NCBI GenBank assembly: GCA_965223385.1
Contig: CBDCWR010000007.1
Location: 2,739,165-2,803,164, forward strand
DNA from: Candidatus Multivoraceae bacterium
GTDB taxonomy: Bacteria > Acidobacteriota > Thermoanaerobaculia > Multivoradales > Multivoraceae
DNA: 64,000 nt
Reading direction: 5' to 3'
A program made the translations under genes and the position numbers. Below the pieces are notes generated by a model, which saw only the letters and a list, made by a program, of their open reading frames with translations, made no database searches and was not told where the DNA came from. Positions within the stretch are counted from its first letter, which is position 1, and every line of letters starts with the position of its first letter. Below are positions 900 to 56,981 of this stretch, piece after piece.

Positions 900-934
900 G
901 GGAAGGACTCTAACTGATATCGACGTCACTTCTA

Positions 935-18511: not shown

Positions 18512-18548
18512 CGCGTGCGACTCCTTTCTCGGGCGTCCGAGGTCTTCG

Positions 18549-21822: not shown

Positions 21823-21943
21823 GTTGCCGGAGACGCGACCGCCCCGTAAGTCGGGTGGGTCGGCGTCTCTGAGCTAGCGGCGATACGTCGCGTGCACCGC
21901 CGTGCGGTGCGCGCGGGCCCGTGAACAGACTTGGAGGGATGCA

Positions 21944-24912: not shown

Positions 24913-27900
24913 GGTCATCGAGTGGTCGCTTCGCAACCAGCTCCTGGTCACTGTCGGGATGCTTCTCATCGTGCTCGCAGGCTTCTGGGCGATCCGCACG
25001 ACCCGCATCGACGCGATCCCGGATCTCTCGGACGTCCAGGTCATCCTCTTCACCGAGTTCCCCGGGCAGGCGCCGCAGGTCGTCGAGGACCAGGTCACCT
25101 ATCCGATCACGAGCAAGATGCTCGCCGTTCCTTTCGCCAAGGTGGTCCGCGGCTACTCGTTCTTCGGCTTCTCGTTCGTCTATGTCATCTTCGAGGACGG
25201 AACGGATCTGTACTGGGCGCGCTCGCGCGTGCTCGAGTACCTCTCCGGCCTCGCGGCGGACCTGCCGGACGGGGTGACGCCGCAGCTCGGGCCCGACGCC
25301 ACGGGGGTCGGCTGGGCCTTCATGTACACGCTCAACTCGAACGAGCGCTCGCTGGCCGATCTCAGGAGTTACCAGGACTGGTACCTCAAGTACGGCCTCG
25401 CATCGGTCGACGGTGTTTCGGAGGTCGCCTCGATCGGTGGCTTCGTACGCCAGTACCAGGTCGAGGTCGATCCGGTGCGACTTCGCGCCTACGGGCTGCC
25501 GATCCAGAAGGTCAGACAGGCGATTCAGCGCTCGAACGTCGAGGTCGGGGGACGCCTGGTCGAGATTGCCGAGCGGGAGTTCATGGTTCGTGGCCGCGGC
25601 TACGTCCAGGACGTCCGAGACCTCGAGGCCGTCACGTTGGGAGCGGGCCCGGGTGGGGTCCCCATCCTCCTCGAGGACGTGGCGAACGTGACGATCGGGC
25701 CGGAGATCCGGCGGGGCCTCGTCGACTGGAACGGAGAAGGGGAGACGGTGGGTGGCGTCGTGGTCGTCCGCTGGGGAGCCGACACGCGCACGACCATCGA
25801 GAACGTGAAGGCTCGTCTCGAAGAGCTGAGGGAGGGTCTCCCCGAGGACGTGGAAATCTCGGTGGCGTACGACCGGACGGCGCTCATCGAGCGTTCGATC
25901 GACACGCTCGCCGACACCCTGGTCGAAGAGTCCATCGTGGTCGCCCTGGTCTGCCTGGTCTTCCTTTTCCACTTCCGTTCTGCGCTGGTCGCGATCTTCT
26001 CGATTCCGCTGTCGATCCTCCTCGCCTTCGTCGTGATGAAGGTCCAGGGCCTCGGCGCCAACATCATGTCGCTCGGCGGGATCGCGATCTCCATCGGCGT
26101 TCTCGTGGACGCGGCCGTGGTGATGGTGGAGAACGCCCACAAGCACACCGAGCGCTGGAAGGGCAAACGCTCGCACTTCGAGATCATCCTGCGCTCCTCC
26201 CAAGAGGTCGGACCGGCTCTCTTCTTCACGCTGCTCATCATCACGGTCTCGTTCATGCCGATCTTCACGCTCCAGGCGCAGGAAGGGCGCCTCTTCCGAC
26301 CTCTCGCGTTCACCAAGACCTACGCGATCGCTCTCTCGTCCATCCTGGCCGTCACGGTCGTGCCCGTGCTCATGCTCTGGCTGGTGCGGGGAAAGATCCG
26401 GAGTGAAGAACGGCACCCGATGTCGCGACTGCTTCGCTTCTTCTACGAGCCCGTCCTCAACCTCGCTCTGCGGTGGCGGTGGGCGGTGGTCGTGGGTGTA
26501 GTGATCGTGCTGTTGCTCTCCATCGCTCCTTTCCAACGGCTCGGCTCGGAGTTCATGCCTCCGCTGTGGGAGGGCGACCTCCTGTACATGCCGACGACCT
26601 TCCCGGGCGTCTCCATTACCAAGGCCCGGGAGATTGCGCAGCAGACCGACAAGATCATCCGCTCCTTCCCCGAGGTCGAGACGGTCTTTGGCAAGGTCGG
26701 GCGGGCGGAGACCGCCACCGACCCTGCGCCGCTGTCGATGCTGGAAACGACGATCGTTCTCAAGGATCCGTCGGAGTGGCGACCAGGCCTCACCAAAGAA
26801 GAGCTCATCGCCGAGCTGGATGCCGCGATCGACTTTCCTGGGGTCACGAACGCCTGGACGATGCCCATCAAGACGCGGATCGACATGCTGTCGACCGGCA
26901 TCAAGACGCCTGTCGGCATCAAGATCGCCGGCCCGGACCTGACCGTTCTGGAAGAGCTCGGAGAGCAGGTCGAGGCGATCGTCAAGCCGCTCCCGGGCAC
27001 GCTCTCCGCGTACGCCGAGCGGGTGATGGGCGGGAGCTACCTCGACTTCGACATCGACCGACAGGCCGCGTCCCGGTACGGTTTGAACGTGGGTGACGTG
27101 CAGGACGTCGTGCAGTCTGCGGTGGGAGGTATGAACGTCTCGTGGACGGTCGAGGGGCTCGAGCGCTACCCGATCAACGTGCGCTACCCGCGGGAGCTGC
27201 GGGATGATCCGCAGGCGCTCCGCGAGGTCCTCGTGGCGACACCGTCCGGCGCGCAGGTGCCGCTGGGCCAGCTGGCGCGCATCGAGCTGCGACAAGGTCC
27301 TCCCGGGATCAAATCGGAGAACGCGAGGCCCAATGCCTGGGTCTACATCGACCTCGAGGGCATCGATGTCGGCACGTGGGTCGAGCGAGCCCAGGAGGAG
27401 GTGCGCGAGAAGCTGACCTTGCCCTCCGGCTACACCCTCTTCTGGTCGGGTCAGTACGAGTACATGCAGCGGGCGAAGCAGCGGCTGACGCTGATCGTGC
27501 CGATCACGCTCGGCTTGATCATTCTCATCCTCTATCTTCACACCCACTCGGTGATCAAGACGGCTCTGGTCTTGTCGGCGATTCCCTTCGGCCTGGTGGG
27601 GTCGATTTGGTTGCTCGATCTCCTGGACTACAACCTCTCGATCGCCGTGTGGGTCGGAGTGATCGCGCTCGCCGGCCTGGCGACGGAGTTCGGCGTGGTC
27701 ATGCTCCTCTTTCTCGATCTGGCCTGGGAAGAGGCGCAGAAGGAGGGCCGAGTCGCGACCCACGCGGATCTGCTGCGAGTGGTGGATCGCGGGGCGGTGC
27801 AGCGCATTCGCCCGATGACGATGACCACGATGACCACCTTCTTGTCCCTGGCTCCGATCCTCTTCGCGACCGGGACGGGGGCGGATGTCATGCGGAGGAT

Positions 27901-28060
27901 CGCAGCTCCCATGGTGGGAGGCGTCGTCACCTCGTTCGTGGGCGTGCTGCTGGTGCTGCCCGCGGTCTTCTTCATTTGGCGCTCCTTCGGCCTCGAACGG
28001 AGTACGCTGAGGCCCGAAGCGGTCGCTGACGCCGGCCCGGGATCCGGGGCCGCCTCGTGA
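24902..28060 (+). CDS. Heavy-metal-efflux RND pump (CusA/CzcA family)
   Basis: MLHRVIEWSLRNQLLVTVGMLLIVLAGFWAI..., 12-TM RND architecture, 1052 aa. Overlaps the end of the adaptor gene by 11 nt. Confidence 0.85.
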   Translation: MLHRVIEWSLRNQLLVTVGMLLIVLAGFWAIRTTRIDAIPDLSDVQVILFTEFPGQAPQVVEDQVTYPITSKMLAVPFAKVVRGYSFFGFSFVYVIFEDGTDLYWARSRVLEYLSGLAADLPDGVTPQLGPDATGVGWAFMYTLNSNERSLADLRSYQDWYLKYGLASVDGVSEVASIGGFVRQYQVEVDPVRLRAYGLPIQKVRQAIQRSNVEVGGRLVEIAEREFMVRGRGYVQDVRDLEAVTLGAGPGGVPILLEDVANVTIGPEIRRGLVDWNGEGETVGGVVVVRWGADTRTTIENVKARLEELREGLPEDVEISVAYDRTALIERSIDTLADTLVEESIVVALVCLVFLFHFRSALVAIFSIPLSILLAFVVMKVQGLGANIMSLGGIAISIGVLVDAAVVMVENAHKHTERWKGKRSHFEIILRSSQEVGPALFFTLLIITVSFMPIFTLQAQEGRLFRPLAFTKTYAIALSSILAVTVVPVLMLWLVRGKIRSEERHPMSRLLRFFYEPVLNLALRWRWAVVVGVVIVLLLSIAPFQRLGSEFMPPLWEGDLLYMPTTFPGVSITKAREIAQQTDKIIRSFPEVETVFGKVGRAETATDPAPLSMLETTIVLKDPSEWRPGLTKEELIAELDAAIDFPGVTNAWTMPIKTRIDMLSTGIKTPVGIKIAGPDLTVLEELGEQVEAIVKPLPGTLSAYAERVMGGSYLDFDIDRQAASRYGLNVGDVQDVVQSAVGGMNVSWTVEGLERYPINVRYPRELRDDPQALREVLVATPSGAQVPLGQLARIELRQGPPGIKSENARPNAWVYIDLEGIDVGTWVERAQEEVREKLTLPSGYTLFWSGQYEYMQRAKQRLTLIVPITLGLIILILYLHTHSVIKTALVLSAIPFGLVGSIWLLDLLDYNLSIAVWVGVIALAGLATEFGVVMLLFLDLAWEEAQKEGRVATHADLLRVVDRGAVQRIRPMTMTTMTTFLSLAPILFATGTGADVMRRIAAPMVGGVVTSFVGVLLVLPAVFFIWRSFGLERSTLRPEAVADAGPGSGAAS

Positions 28061-29451: not shown

Positions 29452-29476
29452 GCACGGGCGGCGCATGGTATCCCCA
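29452..29476. repeat. 25-bp direct repeat copy 2 (candidate tRNA-proximal att site) spanning the 3' terminus of tRNA-Glu
   Basis: Exact match to 15923..15947; covers the last ~10 nt of the tRNA plus 15 nt of 3' flank. Confidence 0.6.
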
Positions 29477-29543
29477 ACGGGATTCGAACCCGTGTCGCCA
29501 GCTTGAAAGGCTGGTGTCCTAGACCTGACTAGACGATGGGGAC
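29467..29543 (-). tRNA. tRNA-Glu (anticodon TTC)
   Basis: Reverse complement GTCCCCATCGTCTAGTCAGGTCTAGGACACCAGCCTTTCAAGCTGGCGACACGGGTTCGAATCCCGTTGGGGATACCA: cloverleaf with a CTTTCAA anticodon loop and encoded CCA. Confidence 0.85.
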
Positions 29544-30730: not shown

Positions 30731-30791
30731 GTTCCCTCACGGCCCACGAGGAGCGAGCGCCAGCGAGCGTTCGTGGGCCGTGAGGGAATCG
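30731..30791. repeat. Inverted duplicate of the tRNA-Lys 3' end forming a ~19-bp hairpin with the tRNA's own T-stem/acceptor 3' strand
   Basis: 30731-30749 gttccctcacggcccacga is the reverse complement of 30771-30789, separated by a 21-nt loop. Confidence 0.6.
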
Positions 30792-30848
30792 AACCCCCGA
30801 CCATCGGATTAAAAGTCCACCGCTCTACCAACTGAGCTAACGGCCCAC
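30772..30848 (-). tRNA. tRNA-Lys (anticodon TTT)
   Basis: Reverse complement GTGGGCCGTTAGCTCAGTTGGTAGAGCGGTGGACTTTTAATCCGATGGTCGGGGGTTCGATTCCCTCACGGCCCACG; CTTTTAA anticodon loop; CCA not encoded. Confidence 0.85.
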
Positions 30849-33626: not shown

Positions 33627-34814
33627 CTAAGCCAGCTCGAAGAGACCGGCCGCGCCCTGTCCGCCACCGATACACATCGTGACGACGCCGTAGCGTGCCT
33701 TGCGACGCTGCATCTCGTTGGCCAGGTGCCCGACCATCCGCGAGCCGGTCATGCCGAACGGATGGCCGATGGCGATGGAGCCGCCGTTCACGTTCAGCTT
33801 CTCCTGGTCGATGCCCAGGCGGTCGCGGCAGTAGACGACCTGTGACGCGAACGCCTCGTTGAGCTCCCACAGGTCGATGTCGTCGACCTTCAGACCATGG
33901 CGCTCGAGGAGCTTCGGAATCGCGAAGACCGGGCCGATCCCCATCTCGTCGGGCTCGCAGCCGGCCACCGCGAAGCCGCGGAATACGACCTTCGCGTCGA
34001 TGCCGAGCTCGTTCGCGCGCTCGCGCGACATGAGGAGCGTGGCCGAAGCGCCGTCGGAGAGCTGGCTGGCGTTGCCCGCCGTGACGCTGCCCTGGCCCGA
34101 ATCGGGATCGAAGTACGGCTGCAGGTTGCCGAGACCCTGGAGCGTGGTGTCGGGCCGGTTGCACTCGTCGCGCTCGACGGTCTTGGTCTCGGTGCGCGCG
34201 ATCTTCTTGGTCTCCTTGTCGATGATGCCGTAGGTGACCTCCATCGGCGCGAGCTCTTCGTCGAAGTGGCCAGCCTGCTGGCCGGCGGCGGTGCGCTGCT
34301 GGCTCATGAGCGAGTACTCGTCCTGTGCCTCGCGCGTGACGTTGTAGCGCTTGGCGACCACCTCGGCCGTGTCACCCATGGCCATGTAGAGCTCGGGCTT
34401 GTTCTCGACGACCCAGGGGTTCGGGCTGGACTCACCGCCCATGTTGAACGTGATGCTCTCGACGCCTCCGCCGATGGCCGCGTCGGCCCCGTTCACCATG
34501 ATCTGGTGGGCGGCCATGGCCACCGACTGCAGACCGGACGAGCAGAAGCGGTTGACCGTGGTGCCGGGAATCGTGATGGGCAGGCCGGCACGCACCGCGG
34601 CGACGCGGGCCACGTTCGAGCCCGATGCGCGCTCGGGTGTGGCGCAGCCGGCAATGACGTCTTCGACCTCGGCCGGGTCGAGCTCGGGAACCTTCGCGAG
34701 CACGTCGCTGAGACAGTGGGCGAGCAGGTCGTCGGGGCGGGTCATGTTGAACGAGCCGCGGAAGGACTTGGCCAGCGGAGTGCGCGAGCTGGCGACAACG
34801 ACGGCTTCTCTCAT
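33627..34814 (-). CDS. Acetyl-CoA C-acyltransferase (3-ketoacyl-CoA thiolase; FadA/PcaF-like)
   Basis: Thiolase active-site motifs: VNRFCSSGLQSV (Cys nucleophile), NVNGGSIAIGHPFGMTGSR, VVTMCIGGGQGAAGLFE. Confidence 0.85.
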   Translation of the reverse strand: MREAVVVASSRTPLAKSFRGSFNMTRPDDLLAHCLSDVLAKVPELDPAEVEDVIAGCATPERASGSNVARVAAVRAGLPITIPGTTVNRFCSSGLQSVAMAAHQIMVNGADAAIGGGVESITFNMGGESSPNPWVVENKPELYMAMGDTAEVVAKRYNVTREAQDEYSLMSQQRTAAGQQAGHFDEELAPMEVTYGIIDKETKKIARTETKTVERDECNRPDTTLQGLGNLQPYFDPDSGQGSVTAGNASQLSDGASATLLMSRERANELGIDAKVVFRGFAVAGCEPDEMGIGPVFAIPKLLERHGLKVDDIDLWELNEAFASQVVYCRDRLGIDQEKLNVNGGSIAIGHPFGMTGSRMVGHLANEMQRRKARYGVVTMCIGGGQGAAGLFELA

Positions 34815-35059
34815 GGGAAGGCTCCTTTTCTAGGGCTTTTGGGGGCGTTCAAAGTAGCAGGGGCCCCTGTCGGCGTCAATGTGCCGAGGGGCACCGAACC
34901 CCACAGTTCCGGGGTCCTGCGGCGGCCGCGGCTCGTCCCAGGAAGCGCCTCCGCAGGCGGCTCGCAGGGTGGGCAGCGAGAACTTCCGGAGGGCCTGCAC
35001 GTATTCCCAGCATCCGCGAAGCGTCGGGAGCTCCGCGAGTTCAGGACCGAGGTGACGTC

Positions 35060-37504
35060 ATGGGCGACCTGCTCCGAGATCTGAAGTACAGCGTGCGGAT
35101 GCTCTTCAAGAGCCCGCTCTTCTCTTTTGTCGCGATCGTGACGCTCGCGCTCGGCATCGGGCTCAACGCCGCCACCTTCAGCGTGGTGCACACGCTGTTG
35201 GTCGAAACGCTGCCCGGCGCGCACGAGCCCGACCGCCTGGTGCAGGTGTACCGCGCCTGGCCTGGCATGGACTACGGCTCGAACTCGATCCCGCACTACC
35301 AGGACGTGCGCGATCGCTCCGGCGAGGTCTTCGAGAGCGTCGCAGCCTGGACCTTCGCTCCGGTGTCGATCTCGGCCGAAGGGCGCAGCGAGCGCATCAT
35401 GGGCGTGCTGGCGAGCGCCAACTTCTTCGACACGTACGGTGTCGTGCCGGAGGTGGGCCGCGGGTTCATCGCCGGGGTGGAGTCGGAGGGGCCGGGGGAG
35501 CACCCCGTCACGGTGCTGGGTTACAGCTTCTGGCAGTCGCGCTTCGGCGGAGACGAGGGCGTCGTCGGGCGGACGCTGCAGGTGAACGGCCAGCCGTTCG
35601 AGGTGGTGGGCATCGTGCCCGAGGGGTTCCGCGGTCCGATGTCGATGATGGACGTGCCGCTCTACTTTCCCCTGATGATGCAGCCGCAGTTGAACCCCGT
35701 GCGCAACCTCATCGAGCGCCGGGGCAGCAACTCCTTTTTCTCGGACGCCCGCCTGCGCGACGGTAAGACCGTGGAGCAGGCGGAGCAGATGATGGAGGCG
35801 ATGCACGTCGCGCTACGTGAAGAGCTTCCGGACCAGTACAACGAGAACTCGTCCTTCACGCTGGTGCCCCAGAACGAGGCGGGCATCCACCCGATGTTCA
35901 AGGATGCGCAGGTCGGCATGAGCGCGGTCATCATGACGGTGGTCGCTCTCCTCCTGATGATCGCGTGCGTCAACGTGGCCAATCTCTTCCTGGCGCGTGC
36001 GCGGGAGCGCCGTCAGGAGATGGGGGTGCGCATCAGTCTCGGCGGCGGCCGGCTGAGGATCGTGCGGCAGCTGCTCACCGAGAGCATGGTGTTCAGCGCT
36101 CTGGGTGGGCTCGCCGGCGTCGGGCTGGCCTATCTGTCCGGCTACCTGCTGCAGCGCGTGCAGCTGCCGGTGGACGGCCCGTTCGCCTTCAACTTCGAGG
36201 TGGACCGCACCGTGCTGCTCTTCACGCTCGGGGTCTCGGTGTTGGCGGGGCTGCTCTTCGGCCTCGTGCCGGCGCTGCAGGCGTCGAGCCCGCAGCTCGT
36301 GCAGGCGATTCGCGACGGCGCGGGAGGCGGGTGGAGCCGCTCGCGCCTGAGCCGCGGCCTCATCGTCCTGCAGGTGGCGCTCTCCCTCGTGCTGCTCATC
36401 ACGTCCGGCCTCTTCCTGAGGGCCCTCGAAGGCGCGACACGCATCGACCCGGGCTTCGACGAGCCCGCCAGCCTGGCAATGGCCTCGGTCGACCCGGGCC
36501 TGCAGGGGTACGCCCCCGAGCGCACGCACGAGTTCTTCGACCGCCTCCAGGAGAACCTGGAGCGGCAGCCCGGCATCCAGTCGGTTGGCCTGGCCAACTC
36601 GCTGCCGTTGGGCCTGGGAGGCTCCGACACGTCGGTCACGGTGCCGGGGTACGAGTTTGCGGAAGGCGAGCTGCGCAGTCTGCGCTACGCCTACGTCAGG
36701 GAGGGTTTCCTCGAGACCATGGGGATCGAGCTCCTGGAGGGCCGCACCTTCACGCGTCAGGACGATGCGACGGCCGCGCCCGGCATCATCGTGAACCAGC
36801 GGTTCGCGCAGCGCTTCTGGCCTGGTGAGTCGGCGCTCGGGAAGGTCGTCAACACGATCGGGCAGCAGCGGACGGTGCTGGGTGTCGTCGAGACGGGCAA
36901 GGTGCAGAGCCTCGGAGAAGAGCCCACGGAGTACATGTACTTTCCGCAGCGCGAGCTCTTCGCCTCCGCGATGACCGTCGTCGTGCGTACCGGGGGCTCC
37001 GCCGAGGCGGCCCTCCAGGCGCTCCGCCAGACGGTGCGCGAGCTCGACGCGGACATGCCGGTGTACGACGTGCGCACCATGCAGGATCACCTGGGCCTGG
37101 CGCTGCTCCCCGCACGCCTCGCGGGAACGGTGCTGGGCGCGTTTGGCATCCTTGGCCTCCTACTCGCGGCGGTTGGCATCTACGGCGTGATGGCCTACTC
37201 GGTCTCGCAGCGGCAGAAGGAGCTGGGTATCCGGGTCGCCCTCGGGGCGGATCAGCCCAACGTGGTGCAGATGGTGGTCGCCGACGGCCTGCGGCTCACG
37301 GCGATCGGCGTGGCGCTCGGGCTCGCCGGCGCAGCCGCTGCATCACGCCTGGTGGCCGGCATGCTCTACGACGTCTCCGCGCTCGACCCCATCGCGTTTG
37401 GCCTCGTGCCGCTGATCCTCGTCGGGGTCGCCTTCCTCGCGGTGTACGTGCCCGCGCGCCGCGCGTCGAAGGTCGATCCGATCCGCGTGCTCAAGGTCGC
37501 CTGA
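35060..37504 (+). CDS. ABC transporter permease, duplicated FtsX/MacB-like (ADOP family)
   Basis: MGDLLRDLKYSVRMLFKSPLFSFVAIVTLALGIGLNAATFSVV...; two MacB-periplasmic-core + FtsX 4-TM modules; 814 aa. Confidence 0.8.
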   Translation: MGDLLRDLKYSVRMLFKSPLFSFVAIVTLALGIGLNAATFSVVHTLLVETLPGAHEPDRLVQVYRAWPGMDYGSNSIPHYQDVRDRSGEVFESVAAWTFAPVSISAEGRSERIMGVLASANFFDTYGVVPEVGRGFIAGVESEGPGEHPVTVLGYSFWQSRFGGDEGVVGRTLQVNGQPFEVVGIVPEGFRGPMSMMDVPLYFPLMMQPQLNPVRNLIERRGSNSFFSDARLRDGKTVEQAEQMMEAMHVALREELPDQYNENSSFTLVPQNEAGIHPMFKDAQVGMSAVIMTVVALLLMIACVNVANLFLARARERRQEMGVRISLGGGRLRIVRQLLTESMVFSALGGLAGVGLAYLSGYLLQRVQLPVDGPFAFNFEVDRTVLLFTLGVSVLAGLLFGLVPALQASSPQLVQAIRDGAGGGWSRSRLSRGLIVLQVALSLVLLITSGLFLRALEGATRIDPGFDEPASLAMASVDPGLQGYAPERTHEFFDRLQENLERQPGIQSVGLANSLPLGLGGSDTSVTVPGYEFAEGELRSLRYAYVREGFLETMGIELLEGRTFTRQDDATAAPGIIVNQRFAQRFWPGESALGKVVNTIGQQRTVLGVVETGKVQSLGEEPTEYMYFPQRELFASAMTVVVRTGGSAEAALQALRQTVRELDADMPVYDVRTMQDHLGLALLPARLAGTVLGAFGILGLLLAAVGIYGVMAYSVSQRQKELGIRVALGADQPNVVQMVVADGLRLTAIGVALGLAGAAAASRLVAGMLYDVSALDPIAFGLVPLILVGVAFLAVYVPARRASKVDPIRVLKVA

Positions 37505-47150: not shown

Positions 47151-47291
47151 GCCCCGGGAGCCGCTCTCAGCCCCACCCTGGGTGCGGTTTCTCACGACGC
47201 GGTGTCGCTTCTCGAGCCCGCGCCTCTTCCTCGACGGGGTCGGGAGATCCCGACCCCGAACCTCTCGGAGCAACGCCTCGAGAAACGACAG

Positions 47292-49421
47292 CTAGCGTCC
47301 TGCGCGGACGTCGAGCGCGAGGGAGACCTGGCTCGGCGGCAGCACGCCGGTCAGCTGCAGCAGCTTGCCGTCCTCCGGAATGTCGACCGGGAGCGGCTTG
47401 ACCCCCGCCGTGCGGTTCACCTGGAGTGCCTGCGCGGCCACCCTGAACTCGGCCTCCTCGTTCTTCTTCTTCTGCTCGACGAAGGTCTCCTGCACGCGGA
47501 AGTGGTCGACCAGCGGCGCCTCGGACGTCACGGTGATCTCTTCGGTGAGGCCAAGACCAAGCGTGAGATCCGCCTGCGCGGAACGGCCTCGAGACAGGCG
47601 AAAGGTCGTGAAGCTGTCCTGGAACCCCTCGAGGGCACCGGACACGGAGTACCTCCCGGGTGGCAGCTCCGCGAAGGCGTACCAGCCGGAAGCGTCAGTC
47701 ACCGACGTGAAGCGCGCTCCCTGGCCTGCGAGCGTCACGACCACGCCAGGGAGGGGACGTCCCTCGTGGTCTCGAACGGTCCCGAACGCAGCACTCGTCC
47801 CTCCGCCGACTCTCAGGGCGACCTGGTGATCGCTCGCGTCCGTCGCCCGGAGGGACGCCTCCGCGAGGCGGTACTTTCGGCCCGGCGGCAGGAGCACCCG
47901 CCAGCGGTGGTCGAGGACCGGCGTCGCCACCTGCGCCAGGTGGATGGCCAGGGTCGAGCGCGTGGCGGCGATCTCCTGCTCGAGCACGGAGATCAGCTCG
48001 ATGTGGCGCGCCTGCTCGTTGCCGAGGGAGAGCGGCACGTACACCTTGCCGTCGCGCTCGAGAGGTCGCATGGCCTGGTCGTCGACCAGCAGCGACCAGA
48101 GCTCGGCACCCTGGGGCAGCTCCACCTCGAGTGCGGAGCCGCGCCCGACCACCGTGAAGCGGTCGCGGTGGACCAGGCTGCCGTCGACCGTGGCCAGGGT
48201 CGTGGTCTCGCGCCGTCGCACCACGGCTCCCAGATCGGGGGCCTCGGGCAGTACGTCGACGCGCAGCGAGGCCGCGTCGGCGACGGCGGTCTTGCGACGC
48301 CACACGCTGTCTCCGTTCAGGTCACCGACGAGCCGTGCCAGCGACGAGGGCACGTCCGAGGGGTCGATACGGACCCATGCCGAGGCCGGCTGAGGCGCTG
48401 CACGTGCGGCGACGGTCGTCTGCAGCAGGAGGTAGTGGTGCGAAGCCACGGGGTCGGTCAGCACTGGCTCCAGTGGCAGGCTCTCGCCCGCGCCCAGGGT
48501 GCTGCGGAGCGTGACGGAGCCTGTTCCCCGCAGCAGGCTCTCGCGGAAGATGCGGAGCTCGCGCCCGTTGCGCTCGAACGGGGAGGCGCTCTCGTCGGTC
48601 GTGACGGTCTCGGGGTCGAGTGCGGCGGGCAGTCGGAGCGTGTGCTGGCGCAGCTCTCCCGAGGCGACTTCGTAGAGCGCGAAGTCGGTCCGCTGTGCGC
48701 CGTGGCGGTCGATGGCGATGCGCGTCGCCGTCGTCGTCTGCACGCGGGCGTCGGAGATCAGCTCCGTCCTGGTCGGCCGGAGCTCCAGCACGGAGTCGCG
48801 CCCCGGCGCGAGCGCCAGCTGGATCGTGCGGCGCCCGTCCTGGAGCTCGTCTCCGACCAGGCTCGCGTCGGCACAGGCCCAGGCGAGGTTGGCCTCGAGG
48901 TCGACGACGTGCCTGGAGACCGGCGTCGGTACGGCCGGCAGCCGGAGCCGCACTGGGCCGTCCCAGGACGGGACGGCATGGAACGACGTGAGGTGGATGC
49001 GGTAGGTGCCCGGCTCCACGGCGACGAGGCTGACCTCCCCCTCGGTGTCGGAGAGGTAGGCACCTGCTGGCTCGACGCGGCCCGCGGTGACCAGACCGAA
49101 CGCCGGGAGCTTCACCTCCGAGAGCCGTTGGCCGAAGGCGGCGACGTCGAAGGTGGTCTCGGCGTGTACGCCGTCGGCGTCCACCCGCAGTGACGCCTCG
49201 GATCGGACGATCTCAGCGAGGTGTGGCGCGGCGTTCCGCGCGCGGGTGGCTCGGATCCCGGCGGCTGCTTCGATCTGCTCGAGAAGCTCCTCGTAGCGCT
49301 GCATGTCGAGAACGATCTCACCGCGCACGGGGGCGGGAGCGTCTTCCGCGCGCGCCGGGAGCGACCCGGAGGCCTCGAGGACGACGAACGTGGTGAGGAG
49401 GACCAGGGTCTTGTGCAGCAT
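47292..49421 (-). CDS. Large secreted protein B (709 aa) with C-terminal carboxypeptidase-regulatory-like beta-sandwich; unknown function
   Basis: MLHKTLVLLTTFVVLEASGSLPARAED signal peptide; GGAGTGG SD; start overlaps the upstream stop (TGATG). C-terminal region GTVRDHEGRPLPGVVVTLAGQGARFTSVTDASGWYAFAELPPGRYSV. The ORF-track N-terminal extension to 51239 is non-coding read-through. Confidence 0.65.
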   Translation of the reverse strand: MLHKTLVLLTTFVVLEASGSLPARAEDAPAPVRGEIVLDMQRYEELLEQIEAAAGIRATRARNAAPHLAEIVRSEASLRVDADGVHAETTFDVAAFGQRLSEVKLPAFGLVTAGRVEPAGAYLSDTEGEVSLVAVEPGTYRIHLTSFHAVPSWDGPVRLRLPAVPTPVSRHVVDLEANLAWACADASLVGDELQDGRRTIQLALAPGRDSVLELRPTRTELISDARVQTTTATRIAIDRHGAQRTDFALYEVASGELRQHTLRLPAALDPETVTTDESASPFERNGRELRIFRESLLRGTGSVTLRSTLGAGESLPLEPVLTDPVASHHYLLLQTTVAARAAPQPASAWVRIDPSDVPSSLARLVGDLNGDSVWRRKTAVADAASLRVDVLPEAPDLGAVVRRRETTTLATVDGSLVHRDRFTVVGRGSALEVELPQGAELWSLLVDDQAMRPLERDGKVYVPLSLGNEQARHIELISVLEQEIAATRSTLAIHLAQVATPVLDHRWRVLLPPGRKYRLAEASLRATDASDHQVALRVGGGTSAAFGTVRDHEGRPLPGVVVTLAGQGARFTSVTDASGWYAFAELPPGRYSVSGALEGFQDSFTTFRLSRGRSAQADLTLGLGLTEEITVTSEAPLVDHFRVQETFVEQKKKNEEAEFRVAAQALQVNRTAGVKPLPVDIPEDGKLLQLTGVLPPSQVSLALDVRAGR

Positions 49422-51174
49422 CAGAACCACTCCTTTCGCGCGGGGTCGGGGTCGAGATGGATGCGGAGCGCCTCCGGACGGGTCGACATGGCGCTCCACT
49501 GCGCGTCGATGCGCGTGAAGCCCGGTGGCGCTTGGAGCGCCGCCGACTCGAACGGCCCGGGAGAGGACATGCGCAGAGCGCGGTGCGACTCCTGCAGTGC
49601 CGGGCTCCAGTCGCGAGGGACGTGTGCGCGGACGCGCACCTGGGTGATGGGGGCCGTCGCCTCGGGCAGCGGCAGGAGGAGCGTCTCTGCTTCCTGCCAG
49701 TCGGGGAGCGGGATCACTCCCACGACATCGAAGTCGTGCGACCCCTGGAACTTCGACAGCGGCAACACGAGGTCGCTCGGGGTCACGCCGACCGCGCTCC
49801 GCACGCGGCTGCCGTCGCGCTCCGCTCGAATGAGCCGAAAGCCCGACGGCATGCGGAGCTCGACCGAGTCGCTGCCGTGGGTGGTCACCTTCAGGCGAAG
49901 GCGGTACACGGTGTCGCCGGCGAGCCCGAGGAGGGCCTCGACACCGAGCTCGTCGATGCGCTGGGTCAGGACCTCCGTGCTCTCCGGCCAGACGACGCTC
50001 CACGAGAGGGGCCTCTCGCGGAGGAGGTAGGTGGGGGAGCGTTGGTGGATCGCGCCGCCCGTGCCGGCGTTCTCGACCCAGGAGAGGGCCGTGGCGAGCG
50101 TCCCACGCACCTCGTCCGGGTGTGTCTCGATCGCGTCGCCGAGATCGTGGAGAGACAACAGGCCGTCTCCCGCCGTGCTGGCGGTCGCGAGACGTTGATG
50201 GCGCACGGCCCCCTGCACGTCGAGCGTCGGCGTGGCGACAGGGGAGACCGACTCCCGCCGCATCCGGACCGTCACGTCCATGCCCGCCCTCGCCCGCTCT
50301 TCCGGTCGGACGATGAGCGTGCGGCCGTCGTCGCCCAGCTCCCAGGTCGACGTCGGTGTGGCGTCGACGGCGAGCAGCTCGAAGGCGGCCGGGAGAACGA
50401 TCTCCACTTCGTTCTGCGTTCCCTGGTGCACCGAAGTGCGCGCACGCGCGACGAGCCGCGTCTGCGTGCGCCCGATCTCCAGGTGGCTCCAGGTCAGGGC
50501 CGAGAATCGGAGCGGGAGCGCATCGCGGGTGTCCGACGGGCGCTCGAGCTCGGTGATGAGCTCGAGCCTCTCCCCCGGGGCGCCGACGAACGTCGCTGTG
50601 GAGCCGTTGTCTTCCAGCAGGAAGCCTCCACGATGGACTCGAAGGACACCGCGGCGGCCAACGCCTCGAATGGTGCCGGTGACGTGTGCGGCACGCGGCA
50701 GGGTGTAGGCCAGTGTGCGGCGCTCCAGGCTGGACGCCTCGTGCTCTTCCAGGGGGACGGCCTCGGTGAGGGTGATCGTGCCCACCCCTCGGCCTCGAAG
50801 CACCAGCGTCGTACCGTCTTGCCCCAGGCGGCCTTCGAACGGGCCGGAGTCGAGGGCCATCACCTTCGTCTCCCCCACGAGGTCGGCCCGCGGGATCGGG
50901 ATCCACGTGTCTCCGTGCAGGCTGAGAGTGAGGACCGACTGGGCGACGGCGCTCGACTCCTGCAGCTCGAGCGTCACCTCCGCGCCGTGTAGCGCAAATG
51001 GAGCTGCGGGCACGACCGGCAGCTCGACGGGGACGACGCTGCTCTCGACCAGGCGGTGGTAGTCGGCGAGCGGCAGACGGACCTCCTCGGCCTGCAAGGG
51101 CGCAAGCAGCAGCGATGCGAGCAGCGCGGCCGCGGGGGCGACGGACCGCATGGAACCGGATCCTCTTTGGAGCA
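49421..51174 (-). CDS. Large secreted protein A (584 aa), unknown function; translationally coupled to protein B
   Basis: MLQRGSGSMRSVAPAAALLASLLLAPLQAEE signal peptide; GGAGGTG SD 7 nt upstream of the ATG; no recognisable catalytic motif. Confidence 0.65.
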
Positions 51175-51344
51175 TGGCAACACCTCCGGGTGGCGCGCGC
51201 GCAGGTGGCTCGGCGCCTCTGTTCGTGTGGTTGAGACACGCCAACCCGACGGGAAGGAACCGCGATTCCGGAAACTGCACATTCCGACCGAACGATCGGT
51301 CTGCTCGCGAGGGTCGCTCCGGAGGGTCTGCGACCCCGGCGTCG

Positions 51345-52535
51345 TCAGAGCTGGATCGAGCGGGCGTAGTAGCCGCGGTCGAGCCGGCGCGTGCGCACGG
51401 GGCCGTCGCTGACGCCGGTCGCGCGCAGCCGGATGCGGCCACGCGCCGTCGGTCGGACCTGGAGACTCCAGGTCGACCATTGCGAGCGATCGGGTGGCGT
51501 GAAGTCGGTCACGGTCGCCCACTGCTCCGCCCCTTCGTCGCTCTCGAGTCCGATGCGGAGACCCTGCACGCCGGTCGCGTCGCCCCAGCTGATGCCGCGG
51601 AGGTGGAGGTCTCCGCCTGCGTCGGGGCCCCGGACGTCGGTGACGAGCGCCGTGAAGTCGAGGGTTGCCGGCGCGTAGTCGGACGCGAGCTCCGGCTGGC
51701 CCTCCTGGTGGGTCCGGCTCGCGAACTCGCGCATCTGGCTCGAGCTTGGTGCATTGAAGGGCACGACGCGGATCTCCTCCACCCACTTGATGCAGGTGCA
51801 GCCGTACCAGTTCGGCACGATGAGGCGCACCGGAGCACCGTGGTCGAGCGGCAGGGGCTCGCCGTTCATCTCCGTGGCGAGGAAAGCGCCGGCCTCCCGC
51901 AGCTGCGCGACGCGGAAGATCCAGCTGGCTCCCATCACGGAGCTCCGGCTCTCCCGCGCGTGCGTGTCGTTGCCCACGACCTCCACGAGCGTCGTCGAGT
52001 GCAGGTTCCAGAAGAACTCCTGGAAGAGCTCGTCGAGCCGGACGCCGCTCCACTCGGCGGCGCTGAGCAGCCCGAACGCGGCGCGGGAGGAGTTGCCGGA
52101 GCACTCGAGAAGGTGGACTCCCTGCGGTCGCGCGCGCTCGCGGAGGGACGCAACTCCGAGTTCTGCCTCGCTGGAGAAGTCGACCTGATGGCCCGACGCA
52201 TCTCCGCCGGGGATCATCCGGACGACCCAGTCGTCGAGGCTGGTGCGGGCAGCGACGGCGGCGGGAGCCTTGGTGCGGACGTAGAAGTCGACGTTGGCTG
52301 CCAGGGTGTCGGCGCTCTGCACCCGGGTGAGATCGTAGGCGAGCCGCCCGTCGAGGCCTTCACCATAGCTCCGGCCCGGCGGCAGGCGCTCACTCTCGAG
52401 AAACGGCAGCCGAGGGAGGTCGGACGCGGGTCCGGTCAGCGCACGCAGGACGGCCGGGCTCGCGGCGACCAGCGGCAGCGCCGTGAGCACCCCGCGGCGC
52501 GTGGGCCGGGCTCGCAGGAGCGGTTCGCGCATCAC
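51345..52535 (-). CDS. Sulfite-oxidase-family molybdopterin oxidoreductase with Tat signal
   Basis: Twin-arginine motif (PTRRGVLTALPLVAASPAVLRA); LLECSGNSSRAAFG (C(A/S)GN Mo-ligand loop); LIVPNWYGCTCIKWVEEIRV. Confidence 0.7.
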   Translation of the reverse strand: MMREPLLRARPTRRGVLTALPLVAASPAVLRALTGPASDLPRLPFLESERLPPGRSYGEGLDGRLAYDLTRVQSADTLAANVDFYVRTKAPAAVAARTSLDDWVVRMIPGGDASGHQVDFSSEAELGVASLRERARPQGVHLLECSGNSSRAAFGLLSAAEWSGVRLDELFQEFFWNLHSTTLVEVVGNDTHARESRSSVMGASWIFRVAQLREAGAFLATEMNGEPLPLDHGAPVRLIVPNWYGCTCIKWVEEIRVVPFNAPSSSQMREFASRTHQEGQPELASDYAPATLDFTALVTDVRGPDAGGDLHLRGISWGDATGVQGLRIGLESDEGAEQWATVTDFTPPDRSQWSTWSLQVRPTARGRIRLRATGVSDGPVRTRRLDRGYYARSIQL

Positions 52536-52547
52536 GCGTCGCCTCGT

Positions 52548-54608
52548 CTAGTCGGGGAGCGCGAGCGCCAGCAGGGCGTTCTCGTGCCCCTCCTCGCTGA
52601 CCGGCATGACGATGTACTGCTTGCCTTCGTGCAGGTAGGTCATCGGGGCTCCCGACACGGGCGTGGGAAGCTCCATCTCCCAGACGATCTCACCGGTCGC
52701 CTTGTCGTAGGCCCGGAACATCGGGCCACCACCCCAGGGCTGGACCGGCATCGTCGAGGTGCCCTCGGCGACGAAGAGCAGCGTCTTCGTCACGAGAGGC
52801 GACACGCGGGCCGGCTGGCCGAGGCGTGGCAGGTCGAGACCTGCCAGGTCCGGATGGTCGCGGGGGCCTTCGCCGTTGGGCACCATCCACACGTGCTCGC
52901 CCGTGTCGAGGTCGATCGCCGTGATCCGCCCATAAGGCGGCTTGGTGATCGGCAGGCCGTTGGGGAGCATCGTCCACAGGTAGCCGTCGGCTTCGCTCAG
53001 ATCGACGCGGTACTTGAGATCCGAGCGTGCCGGATCCGGCGGCGGGCGCAGGCCCATGACGGCCGGTGCCGTCACCGAGGGGACATAGAGGATGTTGGTC
53101 TCGGGGTCGAGTCCGACGCCGTTCCAGTTCGTGCCGCCGACGGGGCCCGGCGACTGGATCGACGGCTTCGCCGCTTCGACGCCTTCGATCAGCTCCGGCG
53201 GCATGAACATGGGACCGATGCGGAACTGCGCCACGTAGTCGAGCGCCATGCGACGGAGCTCGGGGGTGAAGTCGATCAGATCGTTGTGGCTGAGCCCCTG
53301 CAGGTCGTAGGCCTTGGGCCAGGTCGGGACCGGCTGGGTGGGCCACGACTCTTCGCCGTCGACGTTCGACTGCAGCACCGGCAGCTCCACGATGGGCCAG
53401 ACGGGCTCGCCCGTGGCGCGATCGAAGACGTAGAGGAAAGCCTGTTTGGAAGGCACGGCGACGGCCTGGATCGGGCGGCCGTCCACCTCGATGTCGGCGA
53501 GTACGGGCGCCGCTGGAAAGTCGTAGTCCCAGATGCCGTGATGCACCGCCTGGAAGTGCCAGGCGCGCTCCCCGGACTCGAGGTCGAGCGCAAGGATCGA
53601 CTCGGCGAAGAGGCCCTTGCCCTTCCGGTGGCCGCCGTACCAGTCGTTCGACGGTGTGCTCGTCGCGGCAAAGACACGCCCCATGTCGGGGTCGCAGCTC
53701 ATCCAGGTCCAGACGTTGGCAGCCCCTGTGTAGTCGGCGGAGCCGTCCTCCCAGGTGTCGTACCCGAACTCGCCTTTGCGCGGGATGATGTAGAAGGTCC
53801 ACAGGCGCTGCCCGGTCTCGGCGCTGTAGCCGCGAATGGTGCCGGGTGGGTTCTTCTGCATCGACCACGCGTCGCGCTCGGAGTTGCCCATGACGAGCGT
53901 GTCGCCGCAGACGAGAGGCGCCGAGCTCCAGCGGTAGTTGCGCCGCACGTCTTCGGGCGTGTGCACGCGCAGGTCCACCTTGCCGCCCTCTCCGAACTCA
54001 GGGTCGACCTTGCCGGTCTCGAGGTCCAGTGACGTCAGGTGCGGTCCCACGAAGAAGAAGAGGCGCCGTTTTTCGCCCCTCTCCCACGTGGCCCCGGCCC
54101 GCGACCCGCCCAGGCCGATCGGCGGCCCGTCGGTGCCTTCCCAGCCGTCGTAGTACCAGAGCATCTCGCCCGTTCCCGGGTCGGCAGCTGCGGCGACACC
54201 CATGCCGGTGCTGAAGAGCAGGGCCCCCTCGACCTTGAGGGGCGTCGTCTGGAGCGCCGAAGCGGGGCGGAGCCTGCGGTACTTGTTGGCGGCGCCGTAC
54301 TCGATCGACTTCCAGCGCCACGCCACTTCGAGCTGCGCCACGTTGCTGGCGTCGATCTGGTCGAGGGGTGAGTACTTCGTGCTGCGCACATCGGCCGCAT
54401 AGGAGCCCCAGTTGGCGCCAGGCGGCGCCGGAACGTTGGCCTGCTGCGAAGCGGTGGGTGCGGCGACGGTGGTGAGCAGCACGAAGAGCCCGGCGCGACC
54501 GGGCGCGGCCAGGACGCTCTGGCGGATGGACGCAGAGGTGCTCTGCCAGACGGCAGAGAGGCGCAGATTGTCGGGGAGCATCGCCGCAGTGTAGCCGAGT
54601 GCCTTCAT
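52548..54608 (-). CDS. PQQ-dependent dehydrogenase-like 8-bladed beta-propeller (quinoprotein alcohol/glucose dehydrogenase family), secreted
   Basis: Repeated W-motif blades (VAWRW..., MLWYYDGW, RLWTF, RAWHFQAVHHGIWDYD, HVWMV, IVWEME); signal peptide; 686 aa. Confidence 0.7.
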   Translation of the reverse strand: MKALGYTAAMLPDNLRLSAVWQSTSASIRQSVLAAPGRAGLFVLLTTVAAPTASQQANVPAPPGANWGSYAADVRSTKYSPLDQIDASNVAQLEVAWRWKSIEYGAANKYRRLRPASALQTTPLKVEGALLFSTGMGVAAAADPGTGEMLWYYDGWEGTDGPPIGLGGSRAGATWERGEKRRLFFFVGPHLTSLDLETGKVDPEFGEGGKVDLRVHTPEDVRRNYRWSSAPLVCGDTLVMGNSERDAWSMQKNPPGTIRGYSAETGQRLWTFYIIPRKGEFGYDTWEDGSADYTGAANVWTWMSCDPDMGRVFAATSTPSNDWYGGHRKGKGLFAESILALDLESGERAWHFQAVHHGIWDYDFPAAPVLADIEVDGRPIQAVAVPSKQAFLYVFDRATGEPVWPIVELPVLQSNVDGEESWPTQPVPTWPKAYDLQGLSHNDLIDFTPELRRMALDYVAQFRIGPMFMPPELIEGVEAAKPSIQSPGPVGGTNWNGVGLDPETNILYVPSVTAPAVMGLRPPPDPARSDLKYRVDLSEADGYLWTMLPNGLPITKPPYGRITAIDLDTGEHVWMVPNGEGPRDHPDLAGLDLPRLGQPARVSPLVTKTLLFVAEGTSTMPVQPWGGGPMFRAYDKATGEIVWEMELPTPVSGAPMTYLHEGKQYIVMPVSEEGHENALLALALPD

Positions 54609-54644
54609 CGGCTTCCCGCGAGGCGGGGCGCTCGAGGCCAAACG

Positions 54645-55223
54645 CTACGGCGCGCGCATCGCCTCGAAGAGCCAGGCCTTGGCGCGCGTCCACTCGTTGC
54701 GCACGGTTCTCGAAGTGACTCCGAGGAGGTCGGCAATCTGATCCTCGGTGAGGCCGACGTAGAAGCGGTAGTGCACGACGAGCGCCTGGCGCTCGCTGTA
54801 GCGCTCGAGCTTCGCCAGCGCCTGGTCCACCTGCAGGATCTGCTCGAGGTCGAGCCCGCGATGCTCCTTCACGGAAACGGCGATCTCCTCGTTGAGCTCG
54901 ATCGCCTTCTGGCCCTCGCCTCGCTTCTGGCGGCTGTTTCGACGCGCGTAGTCGACGAGGACCTGGCGCATCGCGCGCGCCGCGACCGCGAAGAAGTGGC
55001 TCTTGTCGTTCAGGGTGACCTGGGTCTGCCCCGTGAACTTGAAGTACGTCTCGTGCACCAGTGCGGTGGTGTCGAGCGTCTGCCCGGGCCGGAGCCGCCG
55101 CAGCTGTCCGCGTGCGATCGCCTTGAGCTCGGGGTAGACCTGGTCGAAGAGACGGTCGAGCGCGCCGTCCTCGCCGGCGCGGATCTCGAGAAGGGTCTTC
55201 GTGAAGTCGGGATTGGAGCTCAT
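54645..55223 (-). CDS. ECF sigma-70 factor (TIGR02999-like, Acidobacteria/PVC-type)
   Basis: MSSNPDFTKTLLEIRAGEDGALDRLFDQVYPELKAIARGQL..., region 4 LTEDQIADLLGVTSRTVRNEWTRAKAWL. Confidence 0.8.
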   Translation of the reverse strand: MSSNPDFTKTLLEIRAGEDGALDRLFDQVYPELKAIARGQLRRLRPGQTLDTTALVHETYFKFTGQTQVTLNDKSHFFAVAARAMRQVLVDYARRNSRQKRGEGQKAIELNEEIAVSVKEHRGLDLEQILQVDQALAKLERYSERQALVVHYRFYVGLTEDQIADLLGVTSRTVRNEWTRAKAWLFEAMRAP

Positions 55224-55437
55224 TGGATGACAGCGATGCCGCTGAAGATTGTCACGGAGAGGTCCGCGCAGGGTGGTTGTTGCGCATTTCTTGCCGCGGG
55301 CCGAGCGCTTTCTTGCAAGTTTGAGCCGTTCGTTCCGGATGCCCGACATGCCGACGTAGTCGTGGGTGATCGGTCAAAGCGTGAGCGAGCTCGTCGCTCG
55401 TACGCCGGTCGTCAACAACCGGAGAGGAGAGAAAGCA

Positions 55438-56052
55438 ATGAAGAGTCAGCTCGGGCGTCACTCGATGATCCTCGCTGTCGTCATCACCCTGTGGGCCACG
55501 GGGCTCGCGATTGCGGAGGAGCGGATCGTCCGCCGCTTCGACGTGGCTCAGAACGGCGCCACCTTCAAGGCGGTCGCCTTCGACGGCGATGGTGTGTTCG
55601 ATACCGTCACCGACGACGGGAACCCGGCGCAGGGAGCCGTGTTCAGTGTGCTGGGCTACATCTATCCGAGAGGGACACTCCAGGGTGGGGCCGTCAGTGG
55701 CACGCTGGACGACGGTTCGCCTGCGTTCCCCGATCAGGTCCTCGGGATCTGGAGTTGCCGGGGATGGTTCGTTCTCGACGGCGACCCTGGAATCGAGGGA
55801 GTTCAGCTGCTGGGTAGCCAGGTCTGGGAGTTCAGCGCCGACGGCCCGTACGGAAAGCGGACGATCGTGACGGACGGAGTCGACTTGTCGCTCGAGGACG
55901 TGGATCTCAACGTTCCGTTCAAACGGGCGATCACCGGTGGGACCGGCAGATTCCGGGGCGCCCGCGGTGAGCAGACGATGGTGAACTACGGCTTCAACGC
56001 CAGCTTCGGCTTCGACTCCACCCACCGTCTGGTGATGGAGGTCATGGACTAG
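55438..56052 (+). CDS. Secreted dirigent/allene-oxide-cyclase-like beta-barrel protein, paralog 1
   Basis: Signal peptide MKSQLGRHSMILAVVITLWATGLAIA; strong SD; motifs GIWSCRGWFV and AITGGTGRFRGARGEQ (dirigent-like xxGGTGxFxxARG). Confidence 0.5.
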   Translation: MKSQLGRHSMILAVVITLWATGLAIAEERIVRRFDVAQNGATFKAVAFDGDGVFDTVTDDGNPAQGAVFSVLGYIYPRGTLQGGAVSGTLDDGSPAFPDQVLGIWSCRGWFVLDGDPGIEGVQLLGSQVWEFSADGPYGKRTIVTDGVDLSLEDVDLNVPFKRAITGGTGRFRGARGEQTMVNYGFNASFGFDSTHRLVMEVMD

Positions 56053-56351
56053 AAGCGGCGGTGATGCGATTTCGCCCCGCGTCGGCGCTGGGGTGGGAAG
56101 GGTGCGCCTCTGTCGGCGCGCCGTCCCTCTCCTGCTCTCGTCGTAGGGCCTTCATCGCGGTGCGTGGGGCCCCTTTTCTCCGGGCTGGTCTTGCTTCTCT
56201 GCACCGCTTGCTTTGACGCGGACCAGGCTTCGGATCGCAAAGAGCTCTGGGGTCCTTTCCGCTTCCACGTGGCCTCGGCGTAGTGGGAAGTGAGCGGGTC
56301 AGACGGAGAAGGTCTCCACCGGCTCGGGTCACAACGAGTGAGGAGAGAGTG

Positions 56352-56981
56352 ATGAAGACGAGAAGCAAGTGGAGCGCATGCAGTTTGTTGGTCCTTCTGC
56401 TCGGAGCTCTCGCGCCCGCCTGGGCCGCGAGCGACGAGCTCGAGAGCGAGAGGTCGGAACTGCGCAAGACGTTGCGCCTCGAGGTGGCGGAGAACGGATT
56501 CCTCTTCGTGCCCGACACGGAGCCGGTCCACAACGGCGATCCCTTCCTGCCCGCGTACGGGGGTGAGTTCATCACCGGTGGCTACCTGTACCCCGCCGGC
56601 ACGCTGACCTGCGGGCCGGACGGAGCCGGAGGCTACGTGTGTGACGGCGTCAACGAGGACGGCTCACCGCAGTATCCGGAGAAGGTCGTCGGCACCTGGG
56701 TGTGCCGCGGTTGGCACGTGGGGGACGGCGCCTTCACGGAGACCGGTGCGTGGACCGCCACGAACCAGATCTACTCCTTCACCCCTGCGATCACGCAGGA
56801 GTACGGGCGTCGCACGATCACGACGGACGGCTTCGAGAGCCCGGAGCCGACGCGGTTGCACCGCGCCATCACCGGCGGGACCGGCAGGTTCGCTGGTGTG
56901 AGCGGAGTGCAGATCCAGAAGTTCATGGGCTGGAACCCCAGCATCGGAGTGGGGCTCGAGATCAAGTTCCACTTCGAATGA
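56352..56981 (+). CDS. Secreted dirigent/allene-oxide-cyclase-like beta-barrel protein, paralog 2
   Basis: Signal peptide MKTRSKWSACSLLVLLLGALAPAWA; GTWVCRGWHV and AITGGTGRFAGVSGVQ. Clearly paralogous to 55438..56052. Confidence 0.5.
   Translation: MKTRSKWSACSLLVLLLGALAPAWAASDELESERSELRKTLRLEVAENGFLFVPDTEPVHNGDPFLPAYGGEFITGGYLYPAGTLTCGPDGAGGYVCDGVNEDGSPQYPEKVVGTWVCRGWHVGDGAFTETGAWTATNQIYSFTPAITQEYGRRTITTDGFESPEPTRLHRAITGGTGRFAGVSGVQIQKFMGWNPSIGVGLEIKFHFE

Follow-up and report, generated by a model that had tools for sequence, protein, structure and literature searches.

What is made by two long, overlapping genes without recognisable catalytic motifs that lie directly behind a run of redox genes? 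The locus sits on a 64,000-nucleotide (nt) stretch of contig CBDCWR010000007.1 from a Candidatus Multivoraceae bacterium (Acidobacteriota), here called the window. An earlier note on this DNA had singled out two minus-strand open reading frames (ORFs) of 584 and 709 residues as a candidate envelope or secreted system, with a suggested tie to those redox genes. Both ORFs are present, and we refer to them as gene A, which carries an A-type module, and gene B, which carries a B-type module and an accessory domain. The picture of a coupled two-gene unit of probably exported, β-rich proteins held up, while the tie to the redox genes did not. Judged by hidden Markov model (HMM) alignment, A and B are an anchor-free offshoot of a large, undescribed bacterial superfamily. 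The proteins are already public under the names 'hypothetical' and 'carboxypeptidase regulatory-like domain-containing', and their core is without a family model, structure or assigned function.

Gene A begins with ATG at 51175, one base beyond the region end (51174) proposed earlier, and ends with the TGA stop at 49423-49421. The NCBI model of A (P0007) starts instead at the in-frame Met9, which yields 576 residues. Gene B begins with ATG at 49421-49419, and its stop codon ends at 47292. The good Shine-Dalgarno sequences and the TGATG stop-start overlap claimed in the earlier note were all found, with GGAGG before A, AAGGAG before B and the overlap at 49423-49419. The G+C content at the first, second and third codon positions (GC1/2/3) was 0.74/0.52/0.87 for A and 0.75/0.50/0.89 for B, a pattern like that of the neighbouring genes. 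The long plus-strand ORFs at 47202-49193 and 49457-50992 showed an antisense pattern, with GC1 highest. A and B are real coding genes, and they are translationally coupled.

The two proteins are related to each other. BLASTP of A against B returned nothing significant. The alignment of the B-family profile with the A-family profile (hhalign) reached a probability of 99.3% and an E-value of 1.2e-20 over 472 columns, and the A-family HMM matched B directly at 35.8 bits. The self-scores were 699 bits for A against the A-family HMM and 1065 bits for B against the B-family HMM. At the profile level, A and B are distantly related paralogues along a stretch of about 500 residues. The similar N-terminal layout noticed earlier was thus a real likeness that had been understated, with about 470 aligned columns being homologous. 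The invariant residues were mainly Gly, Pro, Trp, Leu and Tyr, and the conserved polar positions differed between A and B.

The order of A then B, with overlapping stop and start codons, was found in 12 distinct loci, two remote lineages among them, and the closest relatives of the pair came from Acidobacteria metagenome-assembled genomes (MAGs). Besides the window, the pair loci were L001 (= L008, L011), L002, L003, L007, L010, L012, L014, L015, L018 and L019, together with the remote L004 and L016. A search with a narrow alignment gave 3 genome loci and 5 metagenome loci. The recurrence of the same gene order and junction in 12 distinct loci is far beyond chance, and it answers the earlier concern that the pair might not be conserved. 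The TGATG junction, with its 1-nt overlap, also occurs in L001, L002, L007, L010, L012, L016, L018 and L019, and the overlap is 4 nt in L004 and 10 nt in L003 and L014. Across loci the junction reads AGGAG or GGAGG, then TGGTTC, then TGA or TAA, then TG. The terminal (K/R/E)(E/R)-W-F-stop codons of A (49424-49435 in the window) double as the Shine-Dalgarno sequence and spacer of B. The six-base spacer TGGTTC was kept in the window, L001, L002, L007, L012 and L018 although the proteins are only 30-40% identical, implying a dual constraint from the C-terminus of A and the ribosome-binding site of B.

In the remote pair L004, the two proteins have 806 and 771 residues, and both carry C-terminal transmembrane helices. 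Within L004 715-15069, that pair adjoins a divergent TamB gene and a gene for an 824-residue polytopic membrane protein whose soluble C-terminal domain is large. We considered the 824-residue protein as a GT-C or oligosaccharyltransferase (OST)-like enzyme and rejected this, as neither Pfam nor the PDB gave a match for it. Downstream of the L004 pair lie two unannotated genes (519 and 354 residues).

Word-index searches returned only 5-7 homologues each. An exhaustive search with the A-family HMM, counted as clusters at 50% identity, gave 2934 representatives at E<=1e-3, of which 1368 remained at E<=1e-10 and 135 at E<=1e-30. The apparent rarity was therefore a sensitivity artefact of a low-identity, compositionally biased family. 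About 70 representatives were full-length A-type orthologues at E<1e-100. The other relatives fell into three groups, namely single-module proteins of 600-750 residues, two-module fusions of 1400-1600 residues and giants of 2100-2800 residues. Each module was followed by a cluster of transmembrane helices in most of the fused or giant proteins and in some of those with a single module. The giant and fused relatives (P0109, P0113, P0116, P0123-P0161) carried two full modules with 2-5 predicted transmembrane helices after each, and P0116 had an inserted LysM domain. Both fusion modules aligned end to end with the A core and with the B core. From these alignments, A and B match the superfamily module (about 500 residues) over its full length, and the module almost always occurs in twos, as overlapping genes or as one fused polypeptide. 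The two-module fusions lend Rosetta-stone support to a physical assembly of A with B.

No curated family matched the core, in keeping with the earlier view of an uncharacterised family without an assignable or catalytic motif. In Pfam, 61 superfamily members searched at E<=10 gave no match to the core, and the only domains recognised in the proteins scanned were CarboxypepD_reg in B-type proteins and LysM in one relative. NCBIfam had no family for the core of A, B and selected relatives, and the PADLOC models of anti-phage defence did not match A, B, P0013 or P0109. PDB sequence searches to E = 10 with the B-family, A-family and 61-member superfamily profiles found the accessory domain only. 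Two characterised families had been named beforehand as possible homologues. MuiA/DUF4139 (with DUF4140) was rejected, with no Pfam match for A or B at E<=1 or for the 61 members at E<=10. BatD (PF13584) was likewise rejected, being absent from the 61 members at E<=10, and no Bat partners (vWA proteins BatA/B, TPR protein BatC) lay beside the pair in the window, L001-L003 or L007.

Both N-termini consist of a basic n-region followed by a hydrophobic core and an AxA-like site, as expected from the signal peptides reported in the earlier note. Cleavage would fall between MLQRGSGSMRSVAPAAALLASLLLAPLQA and EEV in A and between MLHKTLVLLTTFVVLEASGSLPARA and ED in B. In 44 of 48 A-type representatives, the hydrophobic leader stops right before an almost invariant mature N-terminus, QEVTLPLxxYxxLR, and the N-terminal helix motif V-x-L-P-L-x-x-Y/F-x-x-L is present in 48 of 63 full-length A-type representatives. 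Both mature proteins are acidic and contain 0-1 Cys, and neither has a hydrophobic segment downstream of the signal peptide that could be a membrane anchor. A and B are thus probably exported via Sec-type signal peptides.

AlphaFold2 (AF2) models of both proteins predicted an N-terminal helix, three β-sandwich domains and a C-terminal hairpin, to which the model of B added a transthyretin-like domain and a long charged helix. The mean predicted local distance difference test (pLDDT) score and the predicted template-modelling (pTM) score were 74.5 and 0.43 for A, and 69.8 and 0.34 for B. DSSP assignments on these models bore out the β richness suggested before.

Taken together, we read A and B as a self-contained two-gene cassette that makes an equimolar, non-catalytic heteromeric scaffold or binding module of the cell envelope, a tentative reading to which we give a little less than an even chance. 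The Sec pathway would export both proteins. They would be made in near-equal amounts, because the ribosome-binding site and start codon of B lie within and over the end of A. The homologous three-β-sandwich cores might then pair into a pseudo-symmetric heteromer in the cell envelope, and the complex, having no enzymatic site, would serve as a binding or scaffolding module. B would supply an optional transthyretin-like domain, of a type used elsewhere for non-catalytic binding or spacing. In most other superfamily members the module, again in two copies, would be held at the cytoplasmic membrane through C-terminal helices.

Several points weigh against the scaffold reading. We infer both the binding of A to B and their location in the envelope. 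The confidence of the AF2 models is moderate (alignments of 5-6 sequences), making the domain packing unreliable. The remote pair L016 (205-3353; P0006 and its partner) shares the TGATG overlap, but signal peptides seem to be missing from both of its proteins; either their starts were miscalled, or part of the family is cytoplasmic. One genome, the Acidobacteriota MAG OFTM27 (L005 10001-11242 = L006, L009), is the sole exception to the pairing, retaining a lone truncated B of 413 residues that corresponds to B residues 343-707, with no A gene. This lone B may be what is left of a decaying gene, or a C-terminal half that stands alone. Finally, the lack of a known motif does not prove a lack of catalysis, and a strongly conserved basic segment of B that contains His (RRRETTT...HRDRF, EHRWR) could be an active or ligand-binding site.

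This segment bears on a different explanation, in which A, B or both would be an enzyme whose active site has gone unrecognised, such as a hydrolase or lyase for an extracellular or envelope polymer, with the other paralogue as a degenerate partner. B orthologues share 35-45% identity and keep two B-specific polar segments, residues 398-422 (GAVVRRRETTTLxTVDGSLVHRDRF) and residues 501-512 (PVLEHRWRLLLP). The invariant polar residues over 9 B sequences include R404, H418, E475 and H505, and the RRRETTT...HRDRF / EHRWR patch is absent from A. Such asymmetric polar conservation is also seen in active/inactive paralogue pairs. However, the conserved motifs of B are not common to the wider superfamily, and no catalytic family was found in Pfam, NCBIfam or PDB at permissive thresholds. 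The fold matches were to non-catalytic domains only, those to M1 peptidases covering the non-catalytic N-domain of about 200 residues. We consider an enzyme quite unlikely.

Two further regions of B lie outside the core. The CarboxypepD_reg domain that had been placed at the end of B was confirmed, but it is not terminal, as 88 residues comprising a helix and a conserved β-hairpin follow it. PDB sequence matches within B residues 547-621 were to NOMO2, carboxypeptidase M and a TonB-linked receptor, and the NCBI name of the B orthologue P0002 was taken from this domain. By sequence comparison the domain is dispensable in B, as L003 and L019 have B orthologues that lack it. The invariant residues of the C-terminal hairpin are G673, P676, L677, V679, P682, G685, K686, L694 and P695. 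A motif like this hairpin precedes the transmembrane helices in distant relatives.

The same architecture would also suit structural cell-surface proteins. A and B might be secreted past the periplasm and self-assemble as an S-layer-like coat, an adhesin or a matrix, as suggested by the multi-domain β-sandwich architecture, the acidic and Cys-poor mature proteins and the Foldseek matches to SdrD, UafA, BcpA and SlaB. There was also a weak NCBIfam match of the CarboxypepD_reg region of B to the model of the Kustd1514-type S-layer glycoprotein (NF052345). This assignment was rejected, because the match scored 18.1 bits against a cutoff of 1400 and covered only B residues 542-640, that is, the accessory domain. 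We saw no SLH, PEP-CTERM, autotransporter, type IX secretion or other sorting or anchoring signal, and no secretion-system genes lay nearby in the window or the loci examined. Moreover, the C-terminal helices of the relatives would anchor them to the cytoplasmic membrane, which points to its periplasmic face. A structural role at the cell surface is therefore fairly unlikely in our view.

We then turned to the genomic context. Upstream of A on the same strand (51345-55349) lie genes for an extracytoplasmic function (ECF) sigma factor (PF07638), a pyrroloquinoline quinone (PQQ) dehydrogenase and a molybdopterin (Mo) oxidoreductase, in the co-directional order described earlier. The gaps within this trio are 3 and 12 nt, and it looks like a genuine three-gene unit. 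The sigma factor gene stands ahead of the two genes for periplasmic redox enzymes, and no anti-sigma gene is evident. The earlier note had suggested a functional link. In one such reading A and B would be parts of this unit, serving as accessory, maturation or substrate-binding proteins or as envelope-stress targets of the sigma factor. The pair lies on the same strand directly downstream, all the products are predicted to be extracytoplasmic, and the stretch between the Mo gene and A showed no terminator. A scan of 51176..51344 for a sigma-70 consensus or terminator found none that was significant, and the fold was ordinary (z = -0.7). However, the gap before A is 169 nt, an ECF sigma, PQQ or molybdopterin gene occurred nearby in none of the 11 other pair loci, and the neighbours of the pair are unrelated between lineages. 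The comparative context has largely refuted membership in the redox unit already, and we hold it to be very unlikely.

The neighbours that replace the trio elsewhere include RHS, FG-GAP, TIR, CDO plus amidohydrolase, MacB, vWA, S8 peptidase, metallophosphoesterase, GGDEF and other genes. A conserved-neighbour search over 12 loci revealed lineage-level synteny only, with CDO_I and Amidohydro_3 in L002 and L012. Beyond the 3' end of B, 47235-47258 is a perfect 10-bp palindrome, CGGGGTCGGG-ATCT-CCCGACCCCG, between the convergent B and DUF6265 genes. Its 10-bp stem appeared in the minimum free energy fold of the B 3' region (z = -2.6), and a terminator shared with the DUF6265 gene is plausible. 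With differing neighbours, a 169-nt gap on one side and this hairpin on the other, the pair behaves like a cassette in its own right, and its redox surroundings are incidental.

The structure models brought up one more candidate. In a Foldseek search of the PDB, Ost1/ribophorin I (RPN1), with verified chain identities, came first for both models, at E-values of 3e-9 to 7e-9 and a probability of 1.00 over 390-450 columns, but with template-modelling (TM) scores of 0.20-0.30 and a root-mean-square deviation of about 20 Å. The next matches were integrin alpha legs, Gram-positive pilins and the non-catalytic N-domain of M1 peptidases. A and B might accordingly be pictured as true bacterial homologues of lumenal ribophorin I/Ost1 that hold a nascent exported (glyco)peptide or glycan beside a membrane glycosyltransferase or translocon. 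The two models were built independently, and distant relatives share the plan of a signal peptide, tandem β-sandwiches and a C-terminal membrane anchor. Ost1 is not a catalytic subunit; its two β domains are alike, and it binds glycosylated peptide (PMC7226087).

Against this, the superfamily HMM with filters off scored about 0 bits against Ost1 and RPN1, hhalign against Ost1+RPN1 gave a probability of 0.18% (the Ost1 side being 2 sequences), and Pfam showed no Ribophorin_I match in the 61 members at E<=10. No STT3, PglB or AglB gene was present in any locus examined, A and B have no membrane anchor, and strings of β-sandwiches often cross-match in Foldseek. In BFVD, only generic β-sandwich matches were found, including a 266-column one to a giant-virus 'inter-alpha-trypsin inhibitor family' protein, and no VIT signal was present in Pfam among the 61 members at E<=10. 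Reports of OST1 are confined to eukaryotes and to TACK and Asgard archaea (PMC11417166), and we found no literature report of bacterial ribophorin-like proteins. The resemblance of the predicted folds is a lead rather than a sign of membership, and homology is unproven; we believe that A and B are very unlikely to be true Ost1 homologues. Equally improbable, to our mind, is the broader idea that the obligatorily duplicated superfamily module (about 3000 clusters at 50% identity) is a remote homologue of the Ost1 lumenal domain that keeps nascent polymers bound for export, namely glycans or glycopeptides, on the outer side of the cytoplasmic membrane.

If the homology were true, the superfamily would contain a bacterial counterpart of an N-glycosylation accessory subunit thought to be limited to eukaryotes and TACK/Asgard archaea. 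If not, the proteins would still make up a new envelope scaffold family, whose lineages include Acidobacteriota MAGs and others labelled Deltaproteobacteria. In either case, the pair is an entry point to a 'dark' superfamily of 2934 representatives that, judged by the members scanned, is without a Pfam, NCBIfam or PDB model. The soluble, anchor-free A and B are the form of it best suited to expression, structure determination and ligand screening. Recognising the ECF/PQQ/Mo context as incidental averts a misleading guilt-by-association annotation. The superfamily and its two-module pairing rule were previously unremarked, and the general kind, non-catalytic β-sandwich envelope proteins, is known.

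Table 1. Positions in the window of genes A and B and of their signals, domains and flanking elements.
Feature	Position	Strand	Basis
Gene A, 584-residue protein, predicted exported (A-type module)	49421..51175	-	ORF and start context
Gene B, 709-residue protein, predicted exported (B-type module and accessory domain)	47292..49421	-	ORF
Shine-Dalgarno GGAGG of A, 7 nt before ATG	51183..51187	-	Sequence
Shine-Dalgarno AAGGAG of B, 8 nt before ATG, within the last A codons (K-E-W-F-stop)	49430..49435	-	Sequence
TGATG stop/start overlap of A and B	49419..49423	-	Read directly
Putative signal peptide of A, residues 1-30, probable cleavage after LQA	51086..51175	-	Sequence; leader position in orthologues
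Putative signal peptide of B, residues 1-26, probable cleavage after ARA	49344..49421	-	Sequence; variable hydrophobic leaders in all B orthologues
Core of A, residues 28-533, homologous to B core	49577..51094	-	hhalign
Core of B, residues 32-525, homologous to A core	47847..49328	-	hhalign; A-family HMM match
CarboxypepD_reg (PF13620, transthyretin-like), B residues 547-621, accessory	47559..47783	-	E 1.7e-16, 60.7 bits against cutoff 32.3
C-terminal β-hairpin motif of B, residues 672-707, GVKPLPVDIPEDGKLLQLTGVLPP...	47301..47408	-	Conservation
Intergenic region before A, 169 nt, probable own promoter	51176..51344	-	Gap sizes
GC-rich palindromic hairpin, terminator-like without U tract	47235..47258	.	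Unique exact match; 34 nt past B stop

Elsewhere in the window, the gene content was consistent with an Acidobacteriota chromosome. The genes at 34751-37504 (+), 24764-28060 (+), 21878-23326 (+), 16250-18568 (-) and 914-2842 (+) represent a duplicated MacB_PCD/FtsX permease of the acidobacterial 'ADOP' type, an RND pump accompanied by an OEP outer-membrane factor, a P-type ATPase for heavy metals and a 7TMR-DISM GGDEF protein. The only Rfam/ARAGORN matches in the window were tRNA-Glu(UUC) at 29466-29543 (-) and tRNA-Lys(UUU) at 30773-30846 (-). Two ORFs at 55366-56052 (+) and 56283-56981 (+), divergent from the adjacent ECF sigma gene, had coding-like GC3 and no Pfam match.

Among known systems, the MuiA/DUF4139 and BatD proteins are like A and B in being of similar size, exported or membrane-anchored, β-rich and at best poorly known in function. 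The CarboxypepD_reg proteins (carboxypeptidases D and M, NOMO, the N-terminal extension of TonB-dependent receptors) include B residues 547-621 as a bona fide member. However, this domain makes up about 10% of B and is absent in A, and it is silent on the 500-residue core that defines the pair. The integrin alpha legs and the pilins SdrD, UafA and BcpA, second-tier Foldseek matches with low TM-scores, resemble the models as strings of β-sandwiches, which is a generic likeness. In contrast to the adhesins with multiple immunoglobulin (Ig) domains, A and B lack sortase and isopeptide motifs as well as repeats from any known Ig family. Ost1 is non-catalytic and has tandem β-sandwich ectodomains behind a signal peptide, a plan that is predicted for A and B as well, and its single C-terminal membrane anchor has a counterpart in distant relatives of A and B, not in A or B themselves. 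Sequence and profile likeness to Ost1 is absent, and A and B differ from it further in having three predicted sandwiches and a C-terminal hairpin and in occurring as a pair of paralogues.

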